IMG/VR virus record: IMGVR_UViG_3300025012_000196
Location: 1-38,110 of that record
DNA length: 38,110 nucleotides
DNA from: a virus
Lineage: Duplodnaviria > Caudoviricetes
Direction: 5' to 3' (one strand)
The notes beneath the pieces were generated by a model. It did not search any database. It had not been told where the DNA came from and was given only the letters and a program-made list of their open reading frames with translations. Shown one piece after another: positions 3,147 through 38,110 of the stretch (position 1 is its first letter; every line of letters starts with the position of its first letter). The position numbers and the translations under genes are program-made.

Positions 3147-6100
3147 TTATCGAGCCCCGTTCTCTTTGGCCTGCTCCACAACGAGGCGCGTAATCCTATT
3201 CTTTTCAGTTTGGAGTTCGTCAAGTTTGGCTCTCTTTTCGTCGGGGCTCATGGTCCGGTCAAGTTGTGTGACTTTAACCTGTTTATTAATTTGGCTCAAC
3301 TGTTTTTGTGCCAGATGCATCTTGGGTTTCGACGCAAGTTTGGGCTGTTCCTTTTCGTTCAATTTATCGGCCCGGATATTTTCACCGGTCTGGCGCAAAT
3401 GATCGACGGTCTTAGCTGTCTTGTCCACTTCCTTGAGCAGTTCATAAAAGCTGGTCGTGAACTTGGTATTACGTGCCGGCCCATCCCCCTTGTAGAATGA
3501 TGACAATACCGGCCATTCTTCAGGCTTGGTAGTAGGCTGATTCGGGTAATCCATCAAGCGCCTGGTCATTAAGTCTGAAGCTCCCAGCACGTAGGTACCC
3601 AGAGTGCCAAAATAGCCTTTGACGGCATGATCAAGTCTGGATGGGCTGATATTGATACGTTTGCCGATCTCCTGCATGGTTGCGCTGGTATGGGCTCCGT
3701 GCTGTTCTCCAGGCAATAAACCGTCCGCCTGCGGCGAGACTATGGCACGATCTGTAAAGAAGTCTTTGTTGGCCCATTGCTGTGCAGGCTCGTTGATGAT
3801 CTGCGGCAAGCCAACTGCAAAGGTCTGTGTGAACATACTTGCCAAGCGCTGAGCAAATAACTTACCGTCATGCTGCTTTTCCATGGCCATCTCTGTTAAG
3901 CGTTCCGGGATCGTGCCAAATATCGCCCCTACCTCGAATGGCTTAGGCAGCCGGAAGTGTTTGCCGCCAACAAAGAAATGAAAGTATGTATCCTTGTCCC
4001 ATTCTTCCAGTTCCTGATACTTTGGATTATTCCGATTGTAGAGGTAAAGCAGGACAGCTGCAAAGGCGATTAATGCGCCTTTGAAAGTAAAGGCCCGAGG
4101 ATTCTCCAACATGCCCTTGCCGAGCCGCTGTAGGCCCTGGAGACGTGCACCAAAGAAAGGGACGGTCTGGGTCAGGAAGTTGATTGCCGCCCAATCACCA
4201 CGCATGGAAAAGTCCATAATGTCCTTGGCCTCGAAAGCACCTTGCAGATGACTACCGGTTTTATCCTTAACGTTCTTGTAAGTCTGCACCCGGGCAGCGT
4301 TCTCCATGGCGCCGCCGATCTCCTGCCAAAATTCCCACAGCTTCTTGGGACTGTCCAGAAGGGTGTTCTTGTCAATACCCTTGTTGCTCAACAGTTTTTC
4401 CACCATCAGCTTGGCGGCTGCAGGATCGTTCCCGTAAGCATAACCACCATGGAAGGCACCACCAGCCGCCATTAATTGCACCATATCCGGATCATCGCGG
4501 AAGGCCTTGACGGATCCTTTCAGAGAGGAAACCAGAGGCGTGAAATCGCCCCGGCTGATTGTCCAGGTATGCAGCGTGTCACGGACAAAGTTCCTGATCA
4601 TGAAGTCAGGGGCGGACGTAATTCCCATAGTCAGCAGCCGTTTGACGAAGCGCATGGCGGTCATGGCAGGTCCACCCCACACTTGATCATTGATCGAAGC
4701 CAGAGAGCGTAACAGCAGATCATCATGAATCTGGTAGTATTCCGGTTTGCCATTTCTGAGAACGTGGATAATGTCTTTGCCCTGCGGTTTGGCTGGATGG
4801 AAGAACGTGGTGAAGGCTTCCATATCCTCTGGATCAACAAAGGCATCCACCTCTTCTTGTGTCTCGCCAAAGTATTCATGCACCGCGTCCACCAGATCCT
4901 GGTTGTTGATCTTGACGGACTTCCACTCAAGCGGGGCTTTGGAGGCCGCGCCAATTGCTTCAGCCTTCTGTATGGAGAGCTCAGTTGAATGGTTCTTGAT
5001 TGAGGCGTCTACCAGATGCGTGAAGTTTCTGACGATGTTTTCAAAGATATCGCCCAAACGCTCGTCAGCACCCTTCAAGGTCTTGATACCGGAATTCTGA
5101 GAAGCAAGGCCTTTGGTTTTGAATGGACCTTTGGGTTTATCCTCCACAATGCGGTAGAACGGTACATACTCTTCATGGTCCCAGATCTTACGGGCATCGG
5201 GATTGATTACCCCGGACTCTTCTGCAAAATCCAAAACATGGCGCTTATATTGGACATACTCCCTACGGGCCACGGTCCACCGTGCCGAGTTGGCTGGAGT
5301 TTTGAGCCCTTTCAACAGATTAATTTCATCTTGGTCGAAGTATCGTTCTCGGCCTTCGTTCATCAGCTTTTGCGCACGTTCGCCAACCATCCACCCCAAG
5401 AACTGGTCAAGATCCTCGGCCACCGGTTTGAATATCTGTACCAGGCCCTTGCCCTGTACCGCGCTGCCACCGTCCTTCCATACCGGGTGACCGTGCTTGA
5501 GCATGGCCAGCATGACATCAGAAAGGGAGGTGGACATACGGGCGGCGATATAAGCGGAATCATCAGGGCTGGTAACACCGGCCATCTTGTCCAGATAGCG
5601 CAACGAGGCGTACTTGTCAAAGATGCCCTGCTCCAGTTCGCGCATGCGCGTTTCCTTGTGCGCCAGGTTGCCAAGGCTTTCCTTGATCCGCTCCAGCATG
5701 GTTTTATCTTTTGCACCGATCTTATCCAGCACAGCGTCAACGGCAGGATCGCCGGTGCGAGTGCGGCGCAGGGACATACGAATATCGGGATTATTGCCAT
5801 CGAATTGACCGTTGTTGCCGGTGGCGGATTTGATCTGGTTGGGCTCGAATACGGCGAAGTTCTTCTCAGGCGTCTCCCCATTGAGAGTTTCATAAACGAT
5901 CATGCCGTCATACCCGGCGGCTTTTATTGCGTCCGTCACGTCAAGGGTCTCAATGGCCTTCCACTCGCCTGCCAGTATCTTGCTTTCTAAATCAGCCTTT
6001 GCCTCTGTGGTGTAGGAGTCTGCAGGCAGCATCTCCACAATTGCCTTGACCGCTTCCGTATCTGATGGGTCAAAGAGTTTTCCGATTTTCAGGTAAACCG

Positions 6101-9100
6101 GCATGACATTGGGCTTGCCTTCCTTTTTTGGAACGTTGATATCAATGTGCCCGGGCAATCCGACGGTCCCAGCAAAATCAGAAGCAAATTCCGGTGAGGT
6201 TGAGAAGAACATAGGACCGTCGAAGATTCTCTTCCTGAACACGCTGAAATCTTCACCAGTACCATGGTAAACAACCAAAGGTTTACCTTTGCTGTCCACA
6301 ACCTTGCTGTCTCCAAACCACTTCTTAAACTCGTTGGTTTTAGTGATATCCTTGGCAACCATAAACCGCTCACCATCATACACAGTAGGATCAGTTGATT
6401 TCCCTCTCTCCACCCATCCCCGTGCTTTACCAATCAGCGCCTTGATATCGGCATCTGTCCATTTGAGGTTGAGCCCCATCTTGCGCATCCAATCTTTGAT
6501 CATGGCGATTACGCGCTTGATGAAACCAGGCTTTTCTCCTGACTCTGCCATTTCCGCCAGCTTTTCTTCGGCGGCAATCTTGCGGTCTTCAGGATCCTTT
6601 AGGTCCAGCCCGTAGCGATTGGCGATATCCTTGAGCCCCTTCTGTCCGTATACTGTGATTACCTGTTGCAGTATCGCGTCAAACTGCTTGCCGAGCAAAC
6701 CGCGTATACCATAGTGGCCTACGGTTTCATGCAGCAGGACCTCCATCGCTTCGTTGGCAGAATGCAGGTTGTCGGATATCAGATACACTTGGCCATCTTC
6801 AAACACGCCACGCACATGACCTTCTGCACCGATTGACTGTATCTGGTCGATGATACCAGCCGGCAGATCCTTCTCTGACTGCACTACCTTAATCGGCGGA
6901 GCGTTCTTCCAGGACTTCAAGAGAGGATCTACAGCGGCGTTGACTTTGGTTTGAGAAATTCCGTTCACAGGTCTATTGGCCTTCGAAAAGAAAGTGCCGG
7001 TAGCAGCCGGCATCAAGTTTTTTTCTGCCAAGCTCCCGTCTGTGGTTATCGCGTCCAGCACGCTCACGCCGTACATTTTGCCGAATGTCACCATATTTTT
7101 GACTACAGGCTCACTGGCATAACTCGGCTGGTCCGAGACAATAACCATAGCCGCTGCATTTGTTCTGCTCATCAGCCTCATGAGTAGATCATGGCTGTGT
7201 TCCGGCGCGTTTGACCTTAACGCCCCCATCTTGTCAAATGGAATTTCTACTGTGGCAACCAGTCTATTTTTATTGTCCAAAAGCAAAACACCGGTTTTGC
7301 CTTCGAACCCGATGGCTGCAAGCATTTTCCCAATCTGGTCAGGAGCCGTTATTCTCTCGGCACCTTGAGACGGTCTGAAATTGATTCTTTGGTCCAGGAT
7401 AGGAATGTCCGATGATTTGCCAGAAGCGGGTTTCCCTGTGTCGCCCGTGCTGGCCAGAAACTCACCGCCCTCTCCAATGACCATACTGCCGGCAACCTTG
7501 ATACTGGTCCCGCGCACAAGCTCATCAGATCTATCATTTACGGCATGATCAGCTGGCGAAAACGTAAGATCGCCGGTCGGGTGATTATGGGCAAACCATA
7601 TAGTCGCGGCGTTGGGTATATCTAGGACCGGCCCGATAAGATTCTGTGGGCTGGCAAGGCTTTCGTTTTTAGTCCCTAGCGAAACATTGACAAGCGAGAG
7701 TGGCTTCCCGTCCTTGTCCAGGACTAGAGCCATCAGGTGTTCTTTGGCTTCATTTGCGAGAGGTGAAAAGAAGGTTGCAGCGTCGAATGCGGTTTTTACT
7801 TGGTCAATTCCTGATGTGAATGTGCCGACCTTGGCGAGTCGGACATCTGCATTGATGTTACGAACATTGGGGGGGAGGGTGGAATTAGCGTACCATTCCA
7901 CTCCAGACTGTCCTCGATCAGCAGAAACCGTGACGGATCCGGATTGTTTTTCTGGTACGGGCTTGGCTGGTGTGAACAACGAGAGTTGGGCATTGCTGTT
8001 ATCCTCTACTTTGCCGGATATTACATGGCTGGAATCTAATATACCATATAGTTCACCAGCCTCAAACAATTTATTGCCATCCTTGACCTGCAGTGTGGAA
8101 AAGAACGTATCAAACTCTTTATCCAGTGCCTCACGTTCCTTGCCTTCAGGGAAAGGTCGAACATTGAACATCCGGTACCACGGCAAATTATTATCAGATC
8201 CATATGACAGGAAGTCACTGCGGTTGCCCAGCTCAGATACCTTGTCTTCAATGTAGGCAGAGAAAGCGCGAGATGCCATCTCATGTTCAACAGTCCAGTA
8301 ATCAGAGACACGCCCCTGGTCTATCTTGTAGCTCTCCATGCGGTAGCTGGTTGGTACCTTCTTGACTTTAACATCCTTATTAGCGGCTTCCTCCATCAGT
8401 TTGGTTCGTTTGGCAAAGTCTTTTACGTGAGCAACCAGCGCATCCATTGAGCCTCTGCGTTCGGCGTTGAAACCGCCGCGACCAGTAACCTCTTTATAGA
8501 GTTTGCTCAGTACCTCAATAGTGTCATTTGTCCAGCGGTTAGTTCCCATTGCTCCGCGTGAAGCTGCTTTTACGCCTGGTTTGCTGTCAATACCGTATCG
8601 CCATTCAACGGTGATATCTTCACCAGTAGTGAGTTTGGCTGCCAGTTCATCAAACCTGGATAGTTGTTCCGGAGTCGCGGCAGCCTTCTTGCTGCCATAC
8701 TCGCGGTTCTTTGCCATGTAGTCACGGATCTCGCGTAACTTGCCCTCCAGGCTGCGGGCTGCGGCCCCTACGAACTTCTCCGCCTTCTCCGTATCCTCCA
8801 CGTACTGCTCGGCCTTAAAGTACATGGTCTCAATCAATTGCTTGAAAGCGGTCCTTACCTCTTCGCGTACTCCTGAGTTGGCATATTTAAAGCCAGAACT
8901 GGCCATATCCTTGCCACCACCCTCGGCAGGGTAAACACGGTCTCCACGCTTGTTCTGTACCTTATCGGATTTGGCTTTACCATCCTGACGGGCAAAGTAA
9001 TTATCAAGAGCGTGAAACCATTCATGCGCCAAAGATCCGGCGCCACTCAGCTTGGTGAGATTGATAACGGCATAGGCTGGTTCATAATGTGCTTTGGCAC

Positions 9101-12100
9101 CTGACAGACCTTGCCCCCTGGCCCCGAATGCAAGCGCCAGTTCTCCATTCAGGCTGATTGCTTGCGCCGGAATATTGAGTATTTCGGCCAAATCAAGCAG
9201 GCCATCATAAGCATGGTTCATAACTTCTTGGCGCTCGACTTGATTATTCCAGTTGCCGAATTCCACAGCCCTGAAACCAAAAGCGTCTGTCAACATCTTT
9301 GCTGTGGCATCACTATCACGCCGGACGGCACCAGTCCTGAACACCTTTTCAGGCTTGGCAAGGATCTCTTCACCAAAGGTAGTGTTGGTCTCGATGATAT
9401 CTTGGGCATGCTCAGCCATATACTGCATGGCTTCATCTCTGCTGGTAAATCCATCCTTGATCGTGACGCGCTTACGATCGGTAACATTGCGGATGATCTT
9501 GAAATTGTCGCCATCAGGATTAACACGGTGCTTTACTCCGACAACGGCAACCGGCAGGATATCATCAGCCTCGGCCAGTGTTGCAAAGTTTGTGCGCACA
9601 AGAGCTCGGCCTGTTTCCGTATCAATGATATTCCATTGTCCGGTCTTGACGTTTTCCATAGCGATATAACGGCGGCGCCATGCAGGGATGTTTGACTTTG
9701 CCTTGGTAGATTTAGTACCGGTGGAGGTAGAGATATCCTTACGGGCTCCGCCTATCTTTTCACCGAAGTCATCAATCTTGGTTTTCTCGGATGTGGTTGA
9801 CGGGACGCTCGTCGCGGAGTTGAATAAATCCGGGGTACGATCAACAGTAAAGCTATCCAGCAGATCGCCGGTACTGGCAGCCTTACCACCGGTCTGAGGC
9901 TTTGTTCCAAACGTGGGGGGAGTGGCAAATAGCTTGTTTTGTTGTTCGCCTGAAGAGGATACTACTTCTGTGAGAGGTTTTGTTTCTCCGCTTGCCTGCG
10001 GTTCAGTTCGTTCTTGGATGCCACTGCTTTGAGTGCTTTGGTTCTCTGTGCCGGCGTCAGGCTCAACAGTGCTTGAGTTTGTAGAGGTGTCAATTTCATG
10101 GTTCTGATCTCCTTCAATGAACTGGTCGAAAAAGGAAAGAGCATTGGCTACAGCATCATCTGTAAATGCTTCATCAATAATATCACCCAAATCATCATCT
10201 GACAACTCTTTAACTTCCGCTTCTATGGGAAGTGATTCTTCCTCGATCCTAGCTATTTCTTCTGCAAGCTTCAACTCTCCCATGCGTTCGGCATCATCGG
10301 CATGTACTGGCAGTTCTCCGTTGATTGCAGATTTAAGCATCTGCGCGAATCCGTCAGCATTCACATTGCCATTAACGTCCATAGGCACCGGGTAACCTGC
10401 ATCAAACATCTGCTGTGCCATCTGGTCAATACCCACACCATTCTTGCCGGTCACGCGCAGGTATCGATTCCCTTTACCTTTGGCGCCACGAACCTCGTTT
10501 TTGTCTAGGGCGTTTATAATTGAGGCAAGGTTAATTCCCCCTTGCTTCTTGATATCGGTAAGGAGATTGCGAGGGGGCGCGGGTTTCTTTGGGAGTGCGC
10601 CGCCGGAGATTGTCCCACCACGGATATCTCCAGCAGCGTCACTATTCAGCACCTTTTGAGCATCGACAACACCTCCCTCTTTTACATCTTCGTCCCGCAA
10701 GTTGGGCATTTGCGCTTGCCCTTCGCTACCTTCTTGCTGCACTGTGGACACATCATCGGTAGTCACTCCTTGAGTGTTAAGATCTGGCGCCGCCATAACT
10801 GGCGGCACTGTAACCGCTTGTGCGCTTGGCACATTGGCTGGCTTGCCATATACCTGCTCTGCAAGTTTGATCGCGTATTGATCAACAGCCGCTTCCGGAT
10901 CGGTATATTGAGCCTGCACTGCTTCCAGATTACCCAGCTTTTCAACCTTGCCTTTTACGAAAGCCTGTTGGTCAGGGGTAAGGATGGTTCCAATCGTGTT
11001 TGGAACTGCAGCTTGTCCACCAGATTCTTGTATCTCACTATTAACGATCTGCGTTCCAGTCTGCTGGTCAGCGGGTTTTTGTCTACTGTCAAGAACTGCT
11101 CCCTCAACGTCTGCACTGACCGGCGCAATGATGATGTCTTTCTGGACTGCATCTTGTTTAGGTACGATTCCCTGAACATCTCTACCCTCCTGAGTGAGTG
11201 TATTAATTGTCTCTGTGATAGCGGCGTAATTATCCTTCATCCGCTGGGTAGCTTTCGGTTTCTCGGTACCATCCGGATTAAAGATAGACTTCTCCAGGTT
11301 GGCCTTGCGGACCATAAGCTTGGCAAGATCAGGTGAAGTAGATTCATTGTCCGGGACAGTTTCGTTAACCTTTTCGGTTAATGGTTTTGCTTCACTCAAA
11401 TCTGGAACAATTGGTTCAACAGGCTTATTTACTGATATTGGCTCCGTAACTGGCTCTGTTGTTGGTTGTTGTCCTTCCCCGGTTCCTGCCCCTACCCTGC
11501 TGCTGAAGACATCCCGGAAGGCGGGGTTGAGGCGTACCAACTCGCCGTCAGTGAAACCCTGCTGCTTCAATCCATCATAAAGGTTTGCAGCACGTTCCGG
11601 TGTATAACTGGCAGGGTCCGCATTGCGGAAGGCCGCGGAAATTTCTTCCTTGTTAAATCCAGATGCATCAGATGGCCTGGTAGAAGTCGAGAGGCCACGC
11701 TCTTTGGACATACTCGGTTGGTTGAATGCGTGCATCATGGCGAATAAAGCAGCCTGGCCAGCTGTCATGGCTATGTTTTTACCGGTAAGCTGTTGGACAG
11801 GATCGTATTCGGGGCTCACGCCAGTAACCTTATCAGTCATACCGACGGCAATGCCTTGGCCGGTCATGTAGGCAGTATCCGTGATAATCTGGCTGGAGAC
11901 GGTATTGGCGGCCTGGCTCAGTGTACCGACAACCGGAATCTTGGAAAGCCCCTGTGCAGCAAACGACTTTACCGGACCTGTGACGGCAGGCATGGCGGAA
12001 AAGATAGCGGCATCCACTGCTGCGCCTGGCAGTGCCCTAGCCGTGGCTTCCTGTTCGCTCATACCTGGATTCTGCATCAAAAGCTTATCGCGGCTCTCGG

Positions 12101-12812
12101 CAAAGTGAGCGGCGCCGGACAGTCCACCCATGGCCGGCATCACGCCACCGGACACCAGGAGCTTGCCGCCGAAATCTGCCAGACCCTCTCCGACCTCTCC
12201 TACGGTTGAGGCTATCGGGTTACGCTGTGCCTGTTCAGGTGACACTGCCAAAGGTGATCCAATATTCTGGCCAGTCTCCGGGTCAATGCCGGTTCGCATC
12301 CATTGCAGGGTATCAGCGGCGCTTTTGAGTGTTCCTATCACGGGAGTCTGGTTGGCTGGTGTCGGCAGACCAGGATCTCTTACCAGTGTGAGCCCACCTT
12401 GCACAGCCCGGGTCAAACCGCCTGCGGCAGAATAAACGGCACGTCCGGCAAAGCGCGGAATCTCCACGGCAGCGTTATCTGCGTTGATATCGTTCTGTGG
12501 GATGTAATCTGTTGGCGTCGGGATGATTCTGTTATCGGTTACAGGAAACGTACGATTGGGAACCGACGGGGCCTGGTTCAGTGCTTCGGTCAATGGTAAG
12601 TCTTGCTTAGGTACAGTGTTGACAGACTGCTGGATGGCGGCAGTTTCCTGTGAAGTCAGGGCACGCGCAGGACGTCCATTTTCTTTTGGGGCATTCTGCT
12701 GTTTATAAAGTGTGGCAAGTTCTTCCTGAAAGCCTTGCTCTTTAAGATATGAAGCTATCTCTTTAGGGCTGTAACCTTCACGGATCGCCCCCATGATATC
12801 AAATTGCGCCAT
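3147..12812 (-). CDS. Large polyvalent ejection protein (LPD5, LPD1, JAB/RadC, metallopeptidase, ART-PolyVal, LPD38)
   Basis: 3221 aa. DFGEKIGGARKD (LPD5-like); VEFGNW/LAFGARG/LAHEWFH (LPD1); HNHPTGDLTFSPAD (JAMM); LLHETVGH (zincin); FKKWFGDSKVVD..GKPLVVYHGT..GYDG..PNQIKSA (ART-PolyVal); RLPKPFEVG (LPD38). Confidence 0.9.
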   Translation of the reverse strand: MAQFDIMGAIREGYSPKEIASYLKEQGFQEELATLYKQQNAPKENGRPARALTSQETAAIQQSVNTVPKQDLPLTEALNQAPSVPNRTFPVTDNRIIPTPTDYIPQNDINADNAAVEIPRFAGRAVYSAAGGLTRAVQGGLTLVRDPGLPTPANQTPVIGTLKSAADTLQWMRTGIDPETGQNIGSPLAVSPEQAQRNPIASTVGEVGEGLADFGGKLLVSGGVMPAMGGLSGAAHFAESRDKLLMQNPGMSEQEATARALPGAAVDAAIFSAMPAVTGPVKSFAAQGLSKIPVVGTLSQAANTVSSQIITDTAYMTGQGIAVGMTDKVTGVSPEYDPVQQLTGKNIAMTAGQAALFAMMHAFNQPSMSKERGLSTSTRPSDASGFNKEEISAAFRNADPASYTPERAANLYDGLKQQGFTDGELVRLNPAFRDVFSSRVGAGTGEGQQPTTEPVTEPISVNKPVEPIVPDLSEAKPLTEKVNETVPDNESTSPDLAKLMVRKANLEKSIFNPDGTEKPKATQRMKDNYAAITETINTLTQEGRDVQGIVPKQDAVQKDIIIAPVSADVEGAVLDSRQKPADQQTGTQIVNSEIQESGGQAAVPNTIGTILTPDQQAFVKGKVEKLGNLEAVQAQYTDPEAAVDQYAIKLAEQVYGKPANVPSAQAVTVPPVMAAPDLNTQGVTTDDVSTVQQEGSEGQAQMPNLRDEDVKEGGVVDAQKVLNSDAAGDIRGGTISGGALPKKPAPPRNLLTDIKKQGGINLASIINALDKNEVRGAKGKGNRYLRVTGKNGVGIDQMAQQMFDAGYPVPMDVNGNVNADGFAQMLKSAINGELPVHADDAERMGELKLAEEIARIEEESLPIEAEVKELSDDDLGDIIDEAFTDDAVANALSFFDQFIEGDQNHEIDTSTNSSTVEPDAGTENQSTQSSGIQERTEPQASGETKPLTEVVSSSGEQQNKLFATPPTFGTKPQTGGKAASTGDLLDSFTVDRTPDLFNSATSVPSTTSEKTKIDDFGEKIGGARKDISTSTGTKSTKAKSNIPAWRRRYIAMENVKTGQWNIIDTETGRALVRTNFATLAEADDILPVAVVGVKHRVNPDGDNFKIIRNVTDRKRVTIKDGFTSRDEAMQYMAEHAQDIIETNTTFGEEILAKPEKVFRTGAVRRDSDATAKMLTDAFGFRAVEFGNWNNQVERQEVMNHAYDGLLDLAEILNIPAQAISLNGELALAFGARGQGLSGAKAHYEPAYAVINLTKLSGAGSLAHEWFHALDNYFARQDGKAKSDKVQNKRGDRVYPAEGGGKDMASSGFKYANSGVREEVRTAFKQLIETMYFKAEQYVEDTEKAEKFVGAAARSLEGKLREIRDYMAKNREYGSKKAAATPEQLSRFDELAAKLTTGEDITVEWRYGIDSKPGVKAASRGAMGTNRWTNDTIEVLSKLYKEVTGRGGFNAERRGSMDALVAHVKDFAKRTKLMEEAANKDVKVKKVPTSYRMESYKIDQGRVSDYWTVEHEMASRAFSAYIEDKVSELGNRSDFLSYGSDNNLPWYRMFNVRPFPEGKEREALDKEFDTFFSTLQVKDGNKLFEAGELYGILDSSHVISGKVEDNSNAQLSLFTPAKPVPEKQSGSVTVSADRGQSGVEWYANSTLPPNVRNINADVRLAKVGTFTSGIDQVKTAFDAATFFSPLANEAKEHLMALVLDKDGKPLSLVNVSLGTKNESLASPQNLIGPVLDIPNAATIWFAHNHPTGDLTFSPADHAVNDRSDELVRGTSIKVAGSMVIGEGGEFLASTGDTGKPASGKSSDIPILDQRINFRPSQGAERITAPDQIGKMLAAIGFEGKTGVLLLDNKNRLVATVEIPFDKMGALRSNAPEHSHDLLMRLMSRTNAAAMVIVSDQPSYASEPVVKNMVTFGKMYGVSVLDAITTDGSLAEKNLMPAATGTFFSKANRPVNGISQTKVNAAVDPLLKSWKNAPPIKVVQSEKDLPAGIIDQIQSIGAEGHVRGVFEDGQVYLISDNLHSANEAMEVLLHETVGHYGIRGLLGKQFDAILQQVITVYGQKGLKDIANRYGLDLKDPEDRKIAAEEKLAEMAESGEKPGFIKRVIAMIKDWMRKMGLNLKWTDADIKALIGKARGWVERGKSTDPTVYDGERFMVAKDITKTNEFKKWFGDSKVVDSKGKPLVVYHGTGEDFSVFRKRIFDGPMFFSTSPEFASDFAGTVGLPGHIDINVPKKEGKPNVMPVYLKIGKLFDPSDTEAVKAIVEMLPADSYTTEAKADLESKILAGEWKAIETLDVTDAIKAAGYDGMIVYETLNGETPEKNFAVFEPNQIKSATGNNGQFDGNNPDIRMSLRRTRTGDPAVDAVLDKIGAKDKTMLERIKESLGNLAHKETRMRELEQGIFDKYASLRYLDKMAGVTSPDDSAYIAARMSTSLSDVMLAMLKHGHPVWKDGGSAVQGKGLVQIFKPVAEDLDQFLGWMVGERAQKLMNEGRERYFDQDEINLLKGLKTPANSARWTVARREYVQYKRHVLDFAEESGVINPDARKIWDHEEYVPFYRIVEDKPKGPFKTKGLASQNSGIKTLKGADERLGDIFENIVRNFTHLVDASIKNHSTELSIQKAEAIGAASKAPLEWKSVKINNQDLVDAVHEYFGETQEEVDAFVDPEDMEAFTTFFHPAKPQGKDIIHVLRNGKPEYYQIHDDLLLRSLASINDQVWGGPAMTAMRFVKRLLTMGITSAPDFMIRNFVRDTLHTWTISRGDFTPLVSSLKGSVKAFRDDPDMVQLMAAGGAFHGGYAYGNDPAAAKLMVEKLLSNKGIDKNTLLDSPKKLWEFWQEIGGAMENAARVQTYKNVKDKTGSHLQGAFEAKDIMDFSMRGDWAAINFLTQTVPFFGARLQGLQRLGKGMLENPRAFTFKGALIAFAAVLLYLYNRNNPKYQELEEWDKDTYFHFFVGGKHFRLPKPFEVGAIFGTIPERLTEMAMEKQHDGKLFAQRLASMFTQTFAVGLPQIINEPAQQWANKDFFTDRAIVSPQADGLLPGEQHGAHTSATMQEIGKRINISPSRLDHAVKGYFGTLGTYVLGASDLMTRRLMDYPNQPTTKPEEWPVLSSFYKGDGPARNTKFTTSFYELLKEVDKTAKTVDHLRQTGENIRADKLNEKEQPKLASKPKMHLAQKQLSQINKQVKVTQLDRTMSPDEKRAKLDELQTEKNRITRLVVEQAKENGAR

Positions 12813-29626: not shown

Positions 29627-29889
29627 CAGCTAACCACCTCATAAGCCTTATTGATCACCTCTGTCTTGCACATCTCCAGCACCCCGACAACCTCGGCAGC
29701 GGTCATGCCATCTTTGGCCCCGGCTTCGTCTGTGGCGTTCAGAATCTTGTCGGCCAGGCGTTCGATGCGGGAGCGAATTATTGCGTCGGCTTCTCCTGAT
29801 ACCAGATTGAACAGGGGCGGCCCTGGCTTTCTGTTGGGGTCAATCTCTCCCCATGGTATCGCCTTTCTGTCACAAAGATGCCCCATCAC
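29626..29889 (-). CDS. Hypothetical protein
   Basis: 87 aa; overlaps both neighbours; AEVVGVLEMCK motif. Confidence 0.6.
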   Translation of the reverse strand: MMGHLCDRKAIPWGEIDPNRKPGPPLFNLVSGEADAIIRSRIERLADKILNATDEAGAKDGMTAAEVVGVLEMCKTEVINKAYEVVS

Positions 29890-30155
29890 TCACCCCGCGC
29901 AATCGAAGCATTTGCCCACATCACGGACTGCTCTAAATTAGTCATAGCAAGTGACCGCTCCCGGCTATCGGGGCACAAGGCCTCAACCATGTACGCCAGT
30001 TCTTTCGCTTTGGCCCTGATCGCCTCATACTTCTCTGGCTGGCCTGGTTTCGGAGCGTGGTACATGAAGTTGTTTTCAATCCTGGGGGACTGCACTTTGC
30101 CTTCTGGCGGCACACACACATCACAGATTTCAAACTCGTTGTTGCAATCGCACAT
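29886..30155 (-). CDS. Acb2/Tad1-like helical hairpin protein
   Basis: NNFMYHAP...YEAIR..AKELA...CP.SRERSLAMTNLEQSVMWANASIAR. Confidence 0.7.
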   Translation of the reverse strand: MCDCNNEFEICDVCVPPEGKVQSPRIENNFMYHAPKPGQPEKYEAIRAKAKELAYMVEALCPDSRERSLAMTNLEQSVMWANASIARGE

Positions 30156-35705: not shown

Positions 35706-35959
35706 TCACAAGCCTCGCCCATAAAACCATGAGGAAAATCACTTGCAATTCTTGCGTCGATCCTGGCAGGAGCAGCAGATAGAAACTGTTTATTGATTTG
35801 CTCAAGTTCTAGTGCGGCACGCTCAATCTGCGGCGGGATTGAGCTGGCACCGTATAAGTAATTCCTGTACGTTTGATAAGGAATCCCCATACACAGCGCC
35901 ATACTCGGGGCGTCAAATTTTATGCGGTCCTGGATCTGCTTAAGTTCGATGTTTGTCAT
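35696..35959 (-). CDS. HTH (XRE/Cro-like) protein
   Basis: MALCMGIPYQTYRNYLYG..SIP helix-turn-helix pattern; GAGG RBS. Confidence 0.65.
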   Translation of the reverse strand: MTNIELKQIQDRIKFDAPSMALCMGIPYQTYRNYLYGASSIPPQIERAALELEQINKQFLSAAPARIDARIASDFPHGFMGEACECE

Positions 35960-36009
35960 ATTGATGCCTCGGCACAATTTTGGTGTTCTTTTTATTATTT
36001 TGTGCTGGT

Positions 36010-36168
36010 TTAAATTCGATACATCCTATCCAGCGGACTTTTGACCGCGTTTTTCTTCTGCATGACATGGGTATTATCCAGGAGGATTTCTTTTTTGCTT
36101 CTGCTTTTCGTGATTTCATTATCAAACGGTTTTATGGGATAAACATTAGATTTATATGCGGTATTCAT
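36010..36168 (-). CDS. 52-aa hypothetical protein (not in the ORF track)
   Basis: MNTAYKSNVYPIKPFDNE...; strong AAGGAGG RBS. Confidence 0.55.
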   Translation of the reverse strand: MNTAYKSNVYPIKPFDNEITKSRSKKEILLDNTHVMQKKNAVKSPLDRMYRI

Positions 36169-36202
36169 TGTTTCCTCCTTTCAGGATATACAGCTAAAAC
36201 GG

Positions 36203-36222
36203 GTTGATAATCATTGTTAGGC
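36203..36222 (+). other. Candidate cassette entry site (attI/attG-like) ending in GTTAGGC
   Basis: Perfect GTTRRRY at 36216-36222, 6/7 complementary to the R'' box CCCTAAC of the next attC; no attC hairpin upstream. Confidence 0.45.
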
Positions 36223-36283
36223 CGCTCTGCAACAGAGTCGGCAAATTATTTTTACTCTATGCATATTTTTCTTTGATTTCCGC

Positions 36284-36311
36284 TTGACAAGTATCAAATA
36301 AGTGGTATACT
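36284..36311 (+). promoter_or_regulatory. Strong sigma70 promoter with extended -10
   Basis: TTGACA-N16-TATACT with TG at -15/-14; GTATCAA direct repeats at 36291 and 36314. Confidence 0.85.
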
Positions 36312-36350
36312 CGGTATCAAGAGTTAAGTAAAACAACAAAGGAGCCAGCC

Positions 36351-36686
36351 ATGACAACGATAATCACCAAAACTTTGAAAGACGGTCGCAGCCTCGAAAT
36401 CAAAAAAACCGGCAAAGAAATCGGCGAAGTGGCGGTACACGTTGACGGCGAATACATGCTGACCGGCCATGCTACCCAGGCTATCGTTAAGGGCCGCCCC
36501 GAAATCACCCACGTAATCAACGGCAAAATCGCCCTGACCAAAACCGAAGCCGAAGCAATCAGCAACGCTTATGCCCCCGAACTGGCTGCAATGATCTCCA
36601 AGGGCCGCAAGTCGGATGTCAAAGAAGCCGAATACCGCAAAAACTACAACCGCATTGCCAACGCTGGCCACGATACGGCCAAATAA
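36351..36686 (+). CDS. Hypothetical protein, 111 aa (candidate anti-defence)
   Basis: AAGGAG RBS; first gene after the strong promoter. Confidence 0.8.
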   Translation: MTTIITKTLKDGRSLEIKKTGKEIGEVAVHVDGEYMLTGHATQAIVKGRPEITHVINGKIALTKTEAEAISNAYAPELAAMISKGRKSDVKEAEYRKNYNRIANAGHDTAK

Positions 36687-36708
36687 AAAACCAAACAGGA
36701 GCCGCGCC

Positions 36709-36906
36709 ATGAAAAAAATCACCCTCGAAAACAGTTTCCACGACACCGAATGCACCGTATTGTCAGACGTTGATGAAGCAAGCGAATACTGGGAAAACCT
36801 CAACATAGCGGCCATGTCGGGCGACCAAAAGGCCGTCAACCAGAAACGCCGCATACATGCCAAACTGTGCGGGTCATCTGACTGTACGTGCGGCACGGTG
36901 CGATAA
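36709..36906 (+). CDS. Hypothetical protein, 65 aa, C-terminal LCGxxDCxCG (candidate anti-defence)
   Basis: AGGAG RBS before the ATG at 36709. Confidence 0.75.
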   Translation: MKKITLENSFHDTECTVLSDVDEASEYWENLNIAAMSGDQKAVNQKRRIHAKLCGSSDCTCGTVR

Positions 36907-37061
36907 TGCGAGGCGGACACAGAGAGGGAGCCGGGCGAAAGCCCGGTAAACCCATGACCATGTTTTACATCCGGGTGCCGGTGGACCTCAAAGAACAGCT
37001 TGCCAAAATCGACCCTGAAAAAATACGCATAGAGTTGTCAAAGATCGTCGCCCCTGAATAA
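36906..37061 (+). CDS. 51-aa ribbon-helix-helix-like DNA-binding protein (not in the ORF track)
   Basis: MRGGHREGAGRKPGKPMTMFYIRVPVDLKEQL...; TAATG coupling to the upstream gene. Confidence 0.7.
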   Translation: MRGGHREGAGRKPGKPMTMFYIRVPVDLKEQLAKIDPEKIRIELSKIVAPE

Positions 37062-37073
37062 GGGGCTTTTTTT
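37050..37073 (+). terminator. Intrinsic terminator of the plus-strand operon
   Basis: GCCCCT-GAATA-AGGGGC followed by T7. Confidence 0.85.
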
Positions 37074-37098
37074 GTGCTAACTGGCGGGCGATTCGCTG

Positions 37099-37158
37099 CC
37101 CTAACCAGTCGCGGCACACGGTCTGCGCTTCGCTTGCCGGTGCGCTTTGTCGTTATAA
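37099..37158 (+). mobile_element. attC site 1 (60 bp)
   Basis: R'' CCCTAAC, 5-nt spacer, L'' GCG[G]CAC[A]CGG pairing with CCGGTGCGC (two extrahelical bases), R' GTTATAA. Confidence 0.75.
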
Positions 37159-37890
37159 TCTGAATCCCGCTAAAATCCTAAATGCCGTTGCCGCCAGGTA
37201 TGGATCTTGTCCGTTTCCAATGGCTTTAAGTCTGTCCATTTGGGCGGCCACTGCATGAGGATCTCGTTTGACTCTGCTGTAATCATCTTGTTCAAGCATC
37301 GAGCCGATTGCTCCTGTATGTTGCCGTCTGCGTGGTTCTTCCTCACAAGCGACGAAATACGGAGAAAAGTCCATGCTTTCCAGCATTGCGCCGTCGGCCT
37401 TAAAAGCGACAATCCAGATTCTCGCGCCTTCACATATTGAACCCGCGGCTGATGCCCCCATAACTCCGTAGCGTCCCACATACCCCATTCGGGCAAGGTC
37501 TGCAATGACTCGTACCCCCCCCCTAGAAGTGAGCATTGGTGAGTTTTCCACGAAAACGACTCTAGGCAAAACCTCGCCAATGATTCTGTCCATTTCTTTC
37601 CAAAGCCCTGACCGTTCTCCCTCGATGCCTGCCCCATGTCCGGCAACGCTAATGTCTTGACAGGGAAAGCCCCCCGAAACCACATCAACAATGCCTCTCC
37701 AAGGTCTTCCGTCAAAAGTGCAAACGTCATCCCAGATAGGGAACGGGTCGAGAATGCCATCATTCTGTCGCTGGACAAGTACGCTTGCGGCGTAAGGTTC
37801 TCGCTCGACGGCGCAAACTGTTCTCCATCCAAGCAATGTCCCTGCGAGTATTCCGCCACCAGCGCCTGCGAAAAGAGCCAACTCATTCAC
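37153..37890 (-). CDS. C5 cytosine DNA methyltransferase, alpha chain
   Basis: Motifs I (LFAGAGG), IV (GGFPCQD), VI (VENS) and X (RLKAIGNG); motif VIII atypical (EGARIW); motif IX absent. GTG start after GGAGG. Confidence 0.85.
   Translation of the reverse strand: MNELALFAGAGGGILAGTLLGWRTVCAVEREPYAASVLVQRQNDGILDPFPIWDDVCTFDGRPWRGIVDVVSGGFPCQDISVAGHGAGIEGERSGLWKEMDRIIGEVLPRVVFVENSPMLTSRGGVRVIADLARMGYVGRYGVMGASAAGSICEGARIWIVAFKADGAMLESMDFSPYFVACEEEPRRRQHTGAIGSMLEQDDYSRVKRDPHAVAAQMDRLKAIGNGQDPYLAATAFRILAGFRL
37170..37886 (-). CDS. Nested alternative-frame beta chain of the methyltransferase
   Basis: 238 aa fully open in a second frame; motif IX-like EILMQWPPKWT; ATG 8 nt after the same GGAGG. 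Confidence 0.7.
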   Translation of the reverse strand: MSWLFSQALVAEYSQGHCLDGEQFAPSSENLTPQAYLSSDRMMAFSTRSLSGMTFALLTEDLGEALLMWFRGAFPVKTLALPDMGQASRENGQGFGKKWTESLARFCLESFSWKTHQCSLLGGGYESLQTLPEWGMWDATELWGHQPRVQYVKARESGLSLLRPTAQCWKAWTFLRISSLVRKNHADGNIQEQSARCLNKMITAESNEILMQWPPKWTDLKPLETDKIHTWRQRHLGF

Positions 37891-37932
37891 ACTACCTCCG
37901 AACCCTATGGCTTGCGCCAAGCGGGAAAATAT

Positions 37933-37991
37933 TTCTAACCAAACATTCAAGCGGGCCGGTGAAGCCCGCCGCTTAATTCAAGCCGTTATCA
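37933..37991 (+). mobile_element. attC site 2 (59 bp)
   Basis: TTCTAAC-CAAAC-ATT[C]AAGCGG...CCGCTTAAT-TCAAGCC-GTTATCA. The L boxes match the classical aadA-type attC boxes ATTCAAGC/GCTTAAT. Confidence 0.88.
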
Positions 37992-38110
37992 CTACTCCAC
38001 TTTGGCAGCGACAACCCAGAACCCGCCATAATACCCGTTGTGTTCGTTGTGGTTTGCCATCGTGAAAGCCCCCTTACTGGTCGTCACTACCAGAAATTGC
38101 ACCTCGTGGC
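37992..38110 (-). CDS. 3' end of a phage-type hypothetical protein (NGYYGG motif), truncated by the window
   Basis: ...HEVQFLVVTTSKGAFTMANHNEHNGYYGGFWVVAAKVE*; the stop abuts the attC2 R' box. Confidence 0.65.
   Translation of the reverse strand, partial: HEVQFLVVTTSKGAFTMANHNEHNGYYGGFWVVAAKVE

Follow-up and report, generated by a model that had tools for sequence, protein, structure and literature searches.

A probable phage-resident integron with inverted cassette genes and an internally deleted integrase gene

Integrons are treated as bacterial devices, and attC clusters in phages as rare captures. In canonical integrons, expression from the promoter Pc requires that the cassette is correctly oriented (PMC5027507). 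In a survey of 10,705 phages, Qi et al. 2023 (PMC9892861) reported three complete integrons, one In0 and 17 clusters of attC sites lacking integrases (CALINs). The three complete integrons were of host type (Vibrio, class 1 and Shewanella), TJE1 and PH101 were described as typical in structure, divergent attC sites in one phage were mentioned, and IntI1 recombined five of the six phage attC sites tested (PMC9892861). Two arrangements of intI relative to attC are known (PMC4889954, PMC13323075). Here, we describe a locus at the cut right end of a 38,110-base linear virus record (IMGVR_UViG_3300025012_000196), hereafter called the window, meaning the whole stretch of DNA that was analyzed. The locus contains an attI site, a remnant of an integron integrase gene (intI), two attC sites and three cassettes, the last of which is cut. 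From sequence comparisons, we consider it highly probable that the locus is an integron resident in the phage, that its cassettes 2 and 3, facing attI and intI, were acquired by IntI at G|TT, and that it would now need an integrase in trans.

The locus is similar to canonical integrons (class 1 and sedentary chromosomal) in the IntI family (TIGR02249 in relatives), in the position of intI opposite the attC top strand with attI by its start, and in attC box anatomy, G|TT crossover and complementarity of cassette ends. It differs from them in that cassette genes face attI and are unreadable from Pc, in its setting in a phage early operon, in the L′–R′ spacer, which is mostly 7–8 nt in the clade, and in the deletion of intI in the window. 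With the phage CALINs of Qi et al., it shares the presence of attC clusters in phages and methyltransferase cargo, whereas a phage-specific IntI clade, a phage attI and systematic inversion distinguish it from what their text describes, although their annotation file may hold inverted cases. As in the inverted-integrase integrons of the Treponema type (PMC4889954), intI and cassette genes lie on one strand. However, in that type intI is flipped relative to attC, while here the relation of intI (− strand) to the attC top strand (+ strand) is normal and the cassette genes are flipped. Integron parts in phages were known, and an inverted-cassette integron that is resident in a phage and has lost its integrase would be new. 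Our literature search, which left most subscription journals outside its reach, found no report of phage IntI clades with inverted cassettes.

attI, the intI remnant and the attC sites

The attI site was assigned to positions 36169–36222 on the + strand, with the crossover at G36216|T36217, 50 nt from the start of intI and thus beside its 5′ end, as in complete integrons. A GTTRRRY motif at 36216 had been pointed out in a first-pass annotation made from the letters alone, and it is present as GTTAGGC. Its identification as attI follows from its position next to intI and from 11 loci with a related IntI, which are conserved to the left of G|TT and not to the right. In these loci, G|TT lies 50–52 nt from the start codon, and identity to the window is 73% in the 45 nt on its left and 26% in the 45 nt on its right, so that the breakpoints of relatives do fall at G|TT, as the first-pass annotation had proposed to check. 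Contigs from runs X5 and X8 diverge from the window after 36219. The attI contains a conserved GATAATCATT ahead of G|TT and, 31 nt upstream of the crossover, a GATATAC box that is exact in 4 of 11 relatives. By analogy with attI1, in which direct repeats serve as accessory sites (PMC8946536), this box is a possible accessory IntI site. An earlier assignment of 36216 as an attG-type secondary site was superseded by attI. A LexA box in attI was rejected, as only one half-site is conserved, as was an open reading frame (ORF) at 36217–36357, which has a TTG start and no family match. A search with the attI pattern returned only two contigs, both already known. We also observed an 11-bp identity between window 36223–36239 and contig L442 (~1140–1160), located inside the first cassette at equal offset from G|TT, with differing cargo.

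The intI remnant (36010–36168, − strand) encodes 52 aa, in which IntI residues 1–31 are fused in frame to the last ~20 residues. Its ribosome-binding site (RBS) and start codon are kept. The deletion of 879 bp (293 codons) is in frame and lies at 36072–36074. The residues lost include the tyrosine of the TTMIYTHV motif (just before THVM), which we take to be the catalytic residue of IntI. The first-pass annotation had seen no intI at the entry site, and this gene, transcribed from the strand opposite the attC top strand as in ordinary integrons, corrects it. The 52-aa ORF matches 29 longer proteins (of 31 candidates), all containing PF13495 and 25 of them 342–349 aa long; the three named proteins among them are all called integron integrase. 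In alignment with the IntI protein P0002, the remnant covers residues 1–31 and 326–343. Both halves of intI are found on one contig from run X5, separated by 879 bp, and L445 shows an equal gap. Since contigs from runs X1 and X3 cross the deletion point without differences and the 52-aa protein is recorded on 11 contigs (possibly from few samples), the deletion does not stem from an error in a single assembly. The remnant is missed by profile searches, with no TIGR02249 match, and hence no intact integrase gene, in the window genome. Independent intI deletions with other endpoints occur in L532 (1672–1758) and L603 (2127–2315), in which only the C-terminal tail is left. The tail is kept in all three deleted genes, which compare with 12 clade contigs without an internal intI deletion, two of them cut by contig ends. 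In L532 and L603, the tail borders on or overlaps the next gene's start, and the 3′ tail of the remnant likely survives owing to the adjoining translation signals of its next gene.

Both attC sites lie on the + strand. The attC1 site (37099–37158) comprises R″ (37099–37105), L″ (37111–37118), L′ (37139–37145) and R′ (37152–37158), with the crossover at G37152|T and three bulged bases at 3-bp spacing in the left arm. The attC2 site (37933–37991) comprises R″ (37933–37939), L″ (37945–37952), L′ (37971–37977) and R′ (37985–37991), and its L boxes are identical to those of attC aadA7 (listed in PMC9892861 Table S3). The common layout is R″, a 5-nt spacer, an 8-nt L″, the centre, a 7-nt L′, a spacer of 6 or 7 nt (7 nt in attC2) and R′, so that boxed sites with extrahelical bases are present on one strand, as in complete integrons. 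A covariance model, trained on 28 attC sites from bacterial genome contigs only, matched the window at attC1 (50.7 bits, E 1.5e-9) and attC2 (20.0 bits, E 0.036) and nowhere else, on the + strand only; because the pattern of the training sites was derived from the attC2 family, attC1 alone is a fair test of this model. A structural scan of 35900–38110 found two sites scoring at least 20, a result that none of 300 shuffles reproduced, with 4 of 300 giving one site. Both analyses thus agree with the two boxed sites and with the + top strand of the first-pass annotation, the latter also indicated by the bulges in the left arm. A first strict pattern scan did not recover attC1, and Rfam at gathering threshold gave no match in the window. 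The locus contains two attC sites within 4 kb on one strand, the minimum for a CALIN, and profiles show no integron integrase near them, yet the intI remnant and attI adjoin and the record is ~64% complete; a standard pipeline would likely call it a CALIN. In L447 (~9911), L526 (~8328) and L527 (~5573), we noted gene-less short hairpin units that run from G|TT to the next R″ and are followed by a shared motif, another copy of which is carried in reverse polarity by L447 and L526.

Cassette units, gene orientation and the phage IntI clade

In 12 arrays, R″ is the reverse complement of the left end of its own cassette at 7/7 positions in 25 of 34 cases and at 6/7 or better in all 34. R″ corresponds to the R′ of the next cassette at 7/7 in none of the 34, and 20,000 permutations gave a mean of 3.1 and a maximum of 11. 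This test excluded intervals in which a site was undetected or degenerate, as well as the L532 rows. Both left ends in the window are 6/7 complementary to their own R″, as correctly described in the first-pass annotation, and share this property with complete integrons. End pairing shows cassette units and not polarity; the + polarity of attC follows from the bulges, the attI on the + strand and attC sites that travel with shared cassettes. L442 and L443 have one such cassette in common (688 bp, 85%), which extends from G|TT to G|TT and includes the attC on the 5′ side of the gene, with different neighbours. A 22-kb contig from X6 matches the methyltransferase unit of cassette 2 (37165–37944) behind a different attC, and its left end is perfectly complementary to R″. 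L001 has the cassette-1 gene, terminator and attC1 arms in common with the window; homology stops after G|TTA, and the centre differs while the stem is kept. L603 contains a 379-bp cassette duplicate with one end at G|TTA, which is possibly an assembly artefact. Among the 80 matches listed, relatives of the methyltransferase (best segments at 48–77% identity) are mostly matches to the gene core and are uninformative on cassette ends.

Upstream of intI in the clade of related integrases, 30 attC sites are opposite intI and 4 are on the same strand. The cassette genes share the direction of intI and are opposed to attC: they are inverted in 28 of 29 clade intervals (23/24 without L533, a duplicate of L446), while beside 83 other IntIs 113 of 148 intervals are canonical. 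In a scan that used a single attC pattern, the gene belonging to the site was inverted in 41 of 62 viral loci versus 5 of 59 genome loci among the matches listed (one site per locus with enough flank; full flanks in 80 loci each). The array of phage TJE1 is canonical by the structural scan, so inversion is not universal in phages, and one gene family is canonical in TJE1 and inverted in L529. The L′–R′ spacer is 7–8 nt long in 27/30 clade sites versus 47/165 elsewhere.

The full-length relatives form a clade of 18 rows with an SH-aLRT value of 100 in a quick tree of 135 rows, and all six tested score above the TIGR02249 cut-off of 265 (376–399 bits). Each of the nine distinct long clade contigs has a phage context, shown by genes for a terminase, portal, endolysin, CII or primase or by IMG/VR records, their backbones differ, with Mu-like and lambdoid ones among them, and the cassette cargo is phage-type (methyltransferases, DUF5131). 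Among 80 genome matches listed, the only full-length one at 70% identity or more is L533, a Mu-like phage contig, and the best matches of P0002 among annotated GenBank phages are seven records below 60% identity. IntIs from other branches are also present on phage contigs (L442/L443 and L039/L044). L362, in which the terminase region is 99.6% identical to that of the window, does not share the array and encodes an IntI of another lineage. This second phage lineage (L362 3–653, L442 1215–2231, L443 5669–6670; 39% to P0002) has a similar attI and inverted cassettes. Two further observations concern other contigs. L617 (943–2444 and 5033–6440), a Geobacter metagenome-assembled genome (MAG) contig with an IntI that is 51% identical to P0002 and lies outside the tree, has the layout of the clade, with intI, attI and an inverted first cassette, and carries downstream of intI a second attC cluster with two attC1-like sites. 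In L613 (KX853513.1, Rctr41k; 4680–8813), co-oriented genes with long attC-like sites lie downstream of an IntI-like gene annotated as xerD. This may be the reverse layout, with intI first and canonical genes; the polarity of one site is ambiguous.

Cassettes of the window and the surrounding phage genome

Cassette 1 (936 bp, 36216–37151, + strand) is a self-contained unit that is co-oriented with attC. It is composed of a putative sigma-70-like promoter (36284–36311; 11/12 consensus, extended −10), ORFs of 111 aa (36351–36686), 65 aa (36709–36906) and 51 aa (36906–37061), and a terminator-like intrinsic hairpin with a T run (37050–37073), all on the + strand. The 111-aa protein has a homolog in phage contig L001 (84% aa) in an equal promoter-terminator-attC setting, and the 51-aa protein, which is basic and has no Pfam match, is possibly a small autoregulator. 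None of the cassette-1 proteins belongs to a PHROG, Pfam or NCBIfam family or has a usable ESM Atlas match. Phage morons are a known system for comparison: like them, cassette 1 combines a promoter, genes and a terminator in one unit that runs opposite to the phage direction, but, enclosed by attI and attC ends, it is packaged as an integron cassette.

Cassette 2 (833 bp, 37152–37984) is formed by attC2 and an inverted gene for a C5-cytosine DNA methyltransferase of 245 aa (37153–37890, − strand; PF00145, 2.6e-22; RBS at 37895–37899). The start of cassette 3 (37985–38110) holds the 3′ end of a DUF7448-like gene on the − strand, cut by the contig end and also inverted relative to attC (phrog_2650, 3.3e-5; PF24240, 5.2e-4, below cut-off). 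Both genes were described in the first-pass annotation as running on the minus strand and ending at R′, and the TAA of the methyltransferase is indeed located inside R′, while the next stop, at 37992, is directly beside R′. The inversion relative to attC that was proposed there applies to cassettes 2 and 3 and not to cassette 1, with its three + ORFs, promoter and terminator. Promoterless genes that are co-oriented with attC and read from Pc, as in a complete integron, are therefore absent, since cassettes 2 and 3 are inverted and cassette 1 has its own promoter. Of the suggested anti-defence cargo, only the methyltransferase qualifies, by family, and an Acb2/Tad1-family anti-defence gene (29886–30155, − strand; PF24729) lies outside the array, in a stretch of small genes between terminase and portal. 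A 238-aa frame (37170–37886, − strand) with weak PHROG matches, starting 4 nt away, overlaps nearly the whole methyltransferase gene, and dual coding is possible.

The window is ~64% complete (CheckV). Its tailed-phage genes (portal, capsid, terminases, replication initiator and resolvase) are located on the minus strand, and the integron locus is upstream of the replication genes. A 3,221-aa polyvalent protein (3147–12812, − strand) contains ART-PolyVal, RadC-like JAB, LPD1 and LPD38 domains. No terminal repeat was found in the window, so the array is not continued at its left end. The right contig end, used as an exact query against viral records, found none. Contigs from X1 and X3 both run 378 bases beyond the end of the window and then stop, at about the position expected for a third attC. 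A member of Desulfobacterota is the likely host, as judged from MAG labels, which are weak for phage contigs. Three or four ORFs adjoining the cassettes in L001 (4834–7577, − strand) resemble what is presumably a Cas7/Cas5-type (type IV-like) module.

Alternative explanations and biological meaning

An accidentally captured piece of a host chromosomal integron, now decaying and with inverted genes that are incidental, would have precedents in the Vibrio phages described by Qi et al. (PMC9892861), and the broken intI and the attC2 L boxes equal to those of a bacterial attC fit such an origin. We regard this explanation as largely refuted and very improbable, because the IntI clade is found in phage context in 9/9 long contigs, its only close full-length genome match among those listed is itself a Mu-like phage contig, the cargo is phage-type and, with the same method, bacterial arrays are found to be canonical. 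The view that the top strand is mis-assigned and the cassettes are canonical on the minus strand could draw on end pairing, which cannot tell the polarities apart, and on canonical phage arrays such as TJE1. It is refuted by the bulges in the + left arm, the + only matches of the bacterial model, the attI crossover on the + strand beside intI, and the finding that a gene is accompanied by the attC on its 5′ side (L442/L443, X6, L001).

It is also improbable, in our view, that the attC hairpins are mere homology patches or RNA hairpins and that exchange proceeds by homologous or illegitimate recombination of the phage rather than by IntI. This would be in line with the abundance of attC1-like pieces in the runs with this phage (bin depth 207 and 1032 versus ~18 and ~7), with shared attC bodies whose cargo changes on both sides, and with the absence of IntI in the window. 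Homologous exchange inside attC would, however, neither preserve attI precisely up to G|TT in the 11 loci nor maintain intact IntIs next to it, although such exchange may act as a second route in intI-less genomes. The remaining alternative is that the 52-aa remnant was selected as an inhibitor, its SPLD tail blocking the docking pocket of an incoming IntI and locking the array. The in-frame deletion, the kept RBS, start and SPLD helix and the tail preserved in all three deleted intIs agree with it, and peptides mimicking the SPLD helix destabilize IntI synapses (bioRxiv 10.64898/2026.03.10.710562). Yet one in three deletions is in frame by chance, and overlap or adjacency with the start of the next gene explains tail survival in L532 and L603, which makes inhibition unlikely.

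Several observations weigh against the locus being an IntI-built integron with inverted cassettes that has lost its integrase. As the window is ~64% complete and there is a contig of 53,205 bp that encodes the same proteins, a second, intact intI beyond 38110 is conceivable. For attC1, folding is not better than in shuffled sequences (z −0.26). The minimum-energy structure of attC2 differs from its recombinogenic fold, whose predicted share is 0.0018 versus 0.15 for that of attC1; folding by minimum energy left the strands unseparated and yielded non-recombinogenic structures for attC2. Elsewhere, the attC bodies are flanked on both sides by other cargo (near-copies of the attC1 body in L530, 96%, and L617, 94%; attC2 in L527), and simple attI × attC insertion is therefore insufficient; in L527, similarity extends ~20 nt past G|TT. 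Both window cassettes are 6/7 at their ends versus 25/32 perfect in relatives, which fits decay but concerns two cases only. Cassette 1 is not inverted, the orientation counts were made with a crude, home-made ORF picker, and L447 and L531 have intact intI and attI, yet 1 and 0 attC sites were detected in them.

For the phage-resident integron, the first-pass annotation had envisaged that attC recombination, through a host or distant integrase, shuffles early genes of the phage. The shuffling is supported by the G|TT breakpoints, end pairing and recurring cassettes, while the integrase was the phage's own and is now deleted. Given its own attI and its own deleted intI of a phage-associated clade, reliance on a host or distant integrase was not part of the system's original design, and dependence on an outside integrase is a derived state of the window genome. 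Judged from its sequence, the array is likely frozen, short of an IntI provided by the host or by a co-infecting phage. Because cassette genes are flipped in the clade, the array, intI and the replication genes are all read in the phage direction. Transcription would start at a phage early promoter at the far end, as suggested by the CII-like genes upstream in L525, L447, L530 and L001, and no Pc would then be needed. IntI would be made during lytic growth, and single-stranded DNA formed at replication would allow the bottom strands of attC, which are the ones used in recombination (PMC5027507), to fold. Cassettes would leave as circles and enter the attI of the same or a co-infecting phage, with the newest ones landing at the greatest distance from the promoter, contrary to the order in bacterial integrons. 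Without control of its own, an integrase would be costly and hence lost repeatedly; according to a review, integrases without LexA control are often truncated (PMC8946536).

We find it moderately probable that temperate phages run their own integrons in the early lytic operon, based on dedicated IntI lineages that have an attI of their own, and that these reshuffle a common stock of phage accessory genes (methyltransferases, small early proteins and morons) in each replication cycle, with genomes of the window type being integrase-less hitchhikers that are serviced by co-infecting phages. A phage CALIN can be an integron whose integrase was lost, and profile searches do not recognize this form. 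Instead of rare captures of a bacterial device, the locus points to a phage IntI clade with a phage attI and a reversed expression logic. Phages likely use the integron system to swap accessory genes. Two old questions become testable, namely how mosaicism at gene boundaries arises in phage early regions and where integron cassettes originate. If true, part of phage mosaicism would have a site-specific mechanism behind it, and integron cassettes would have a candidate source.

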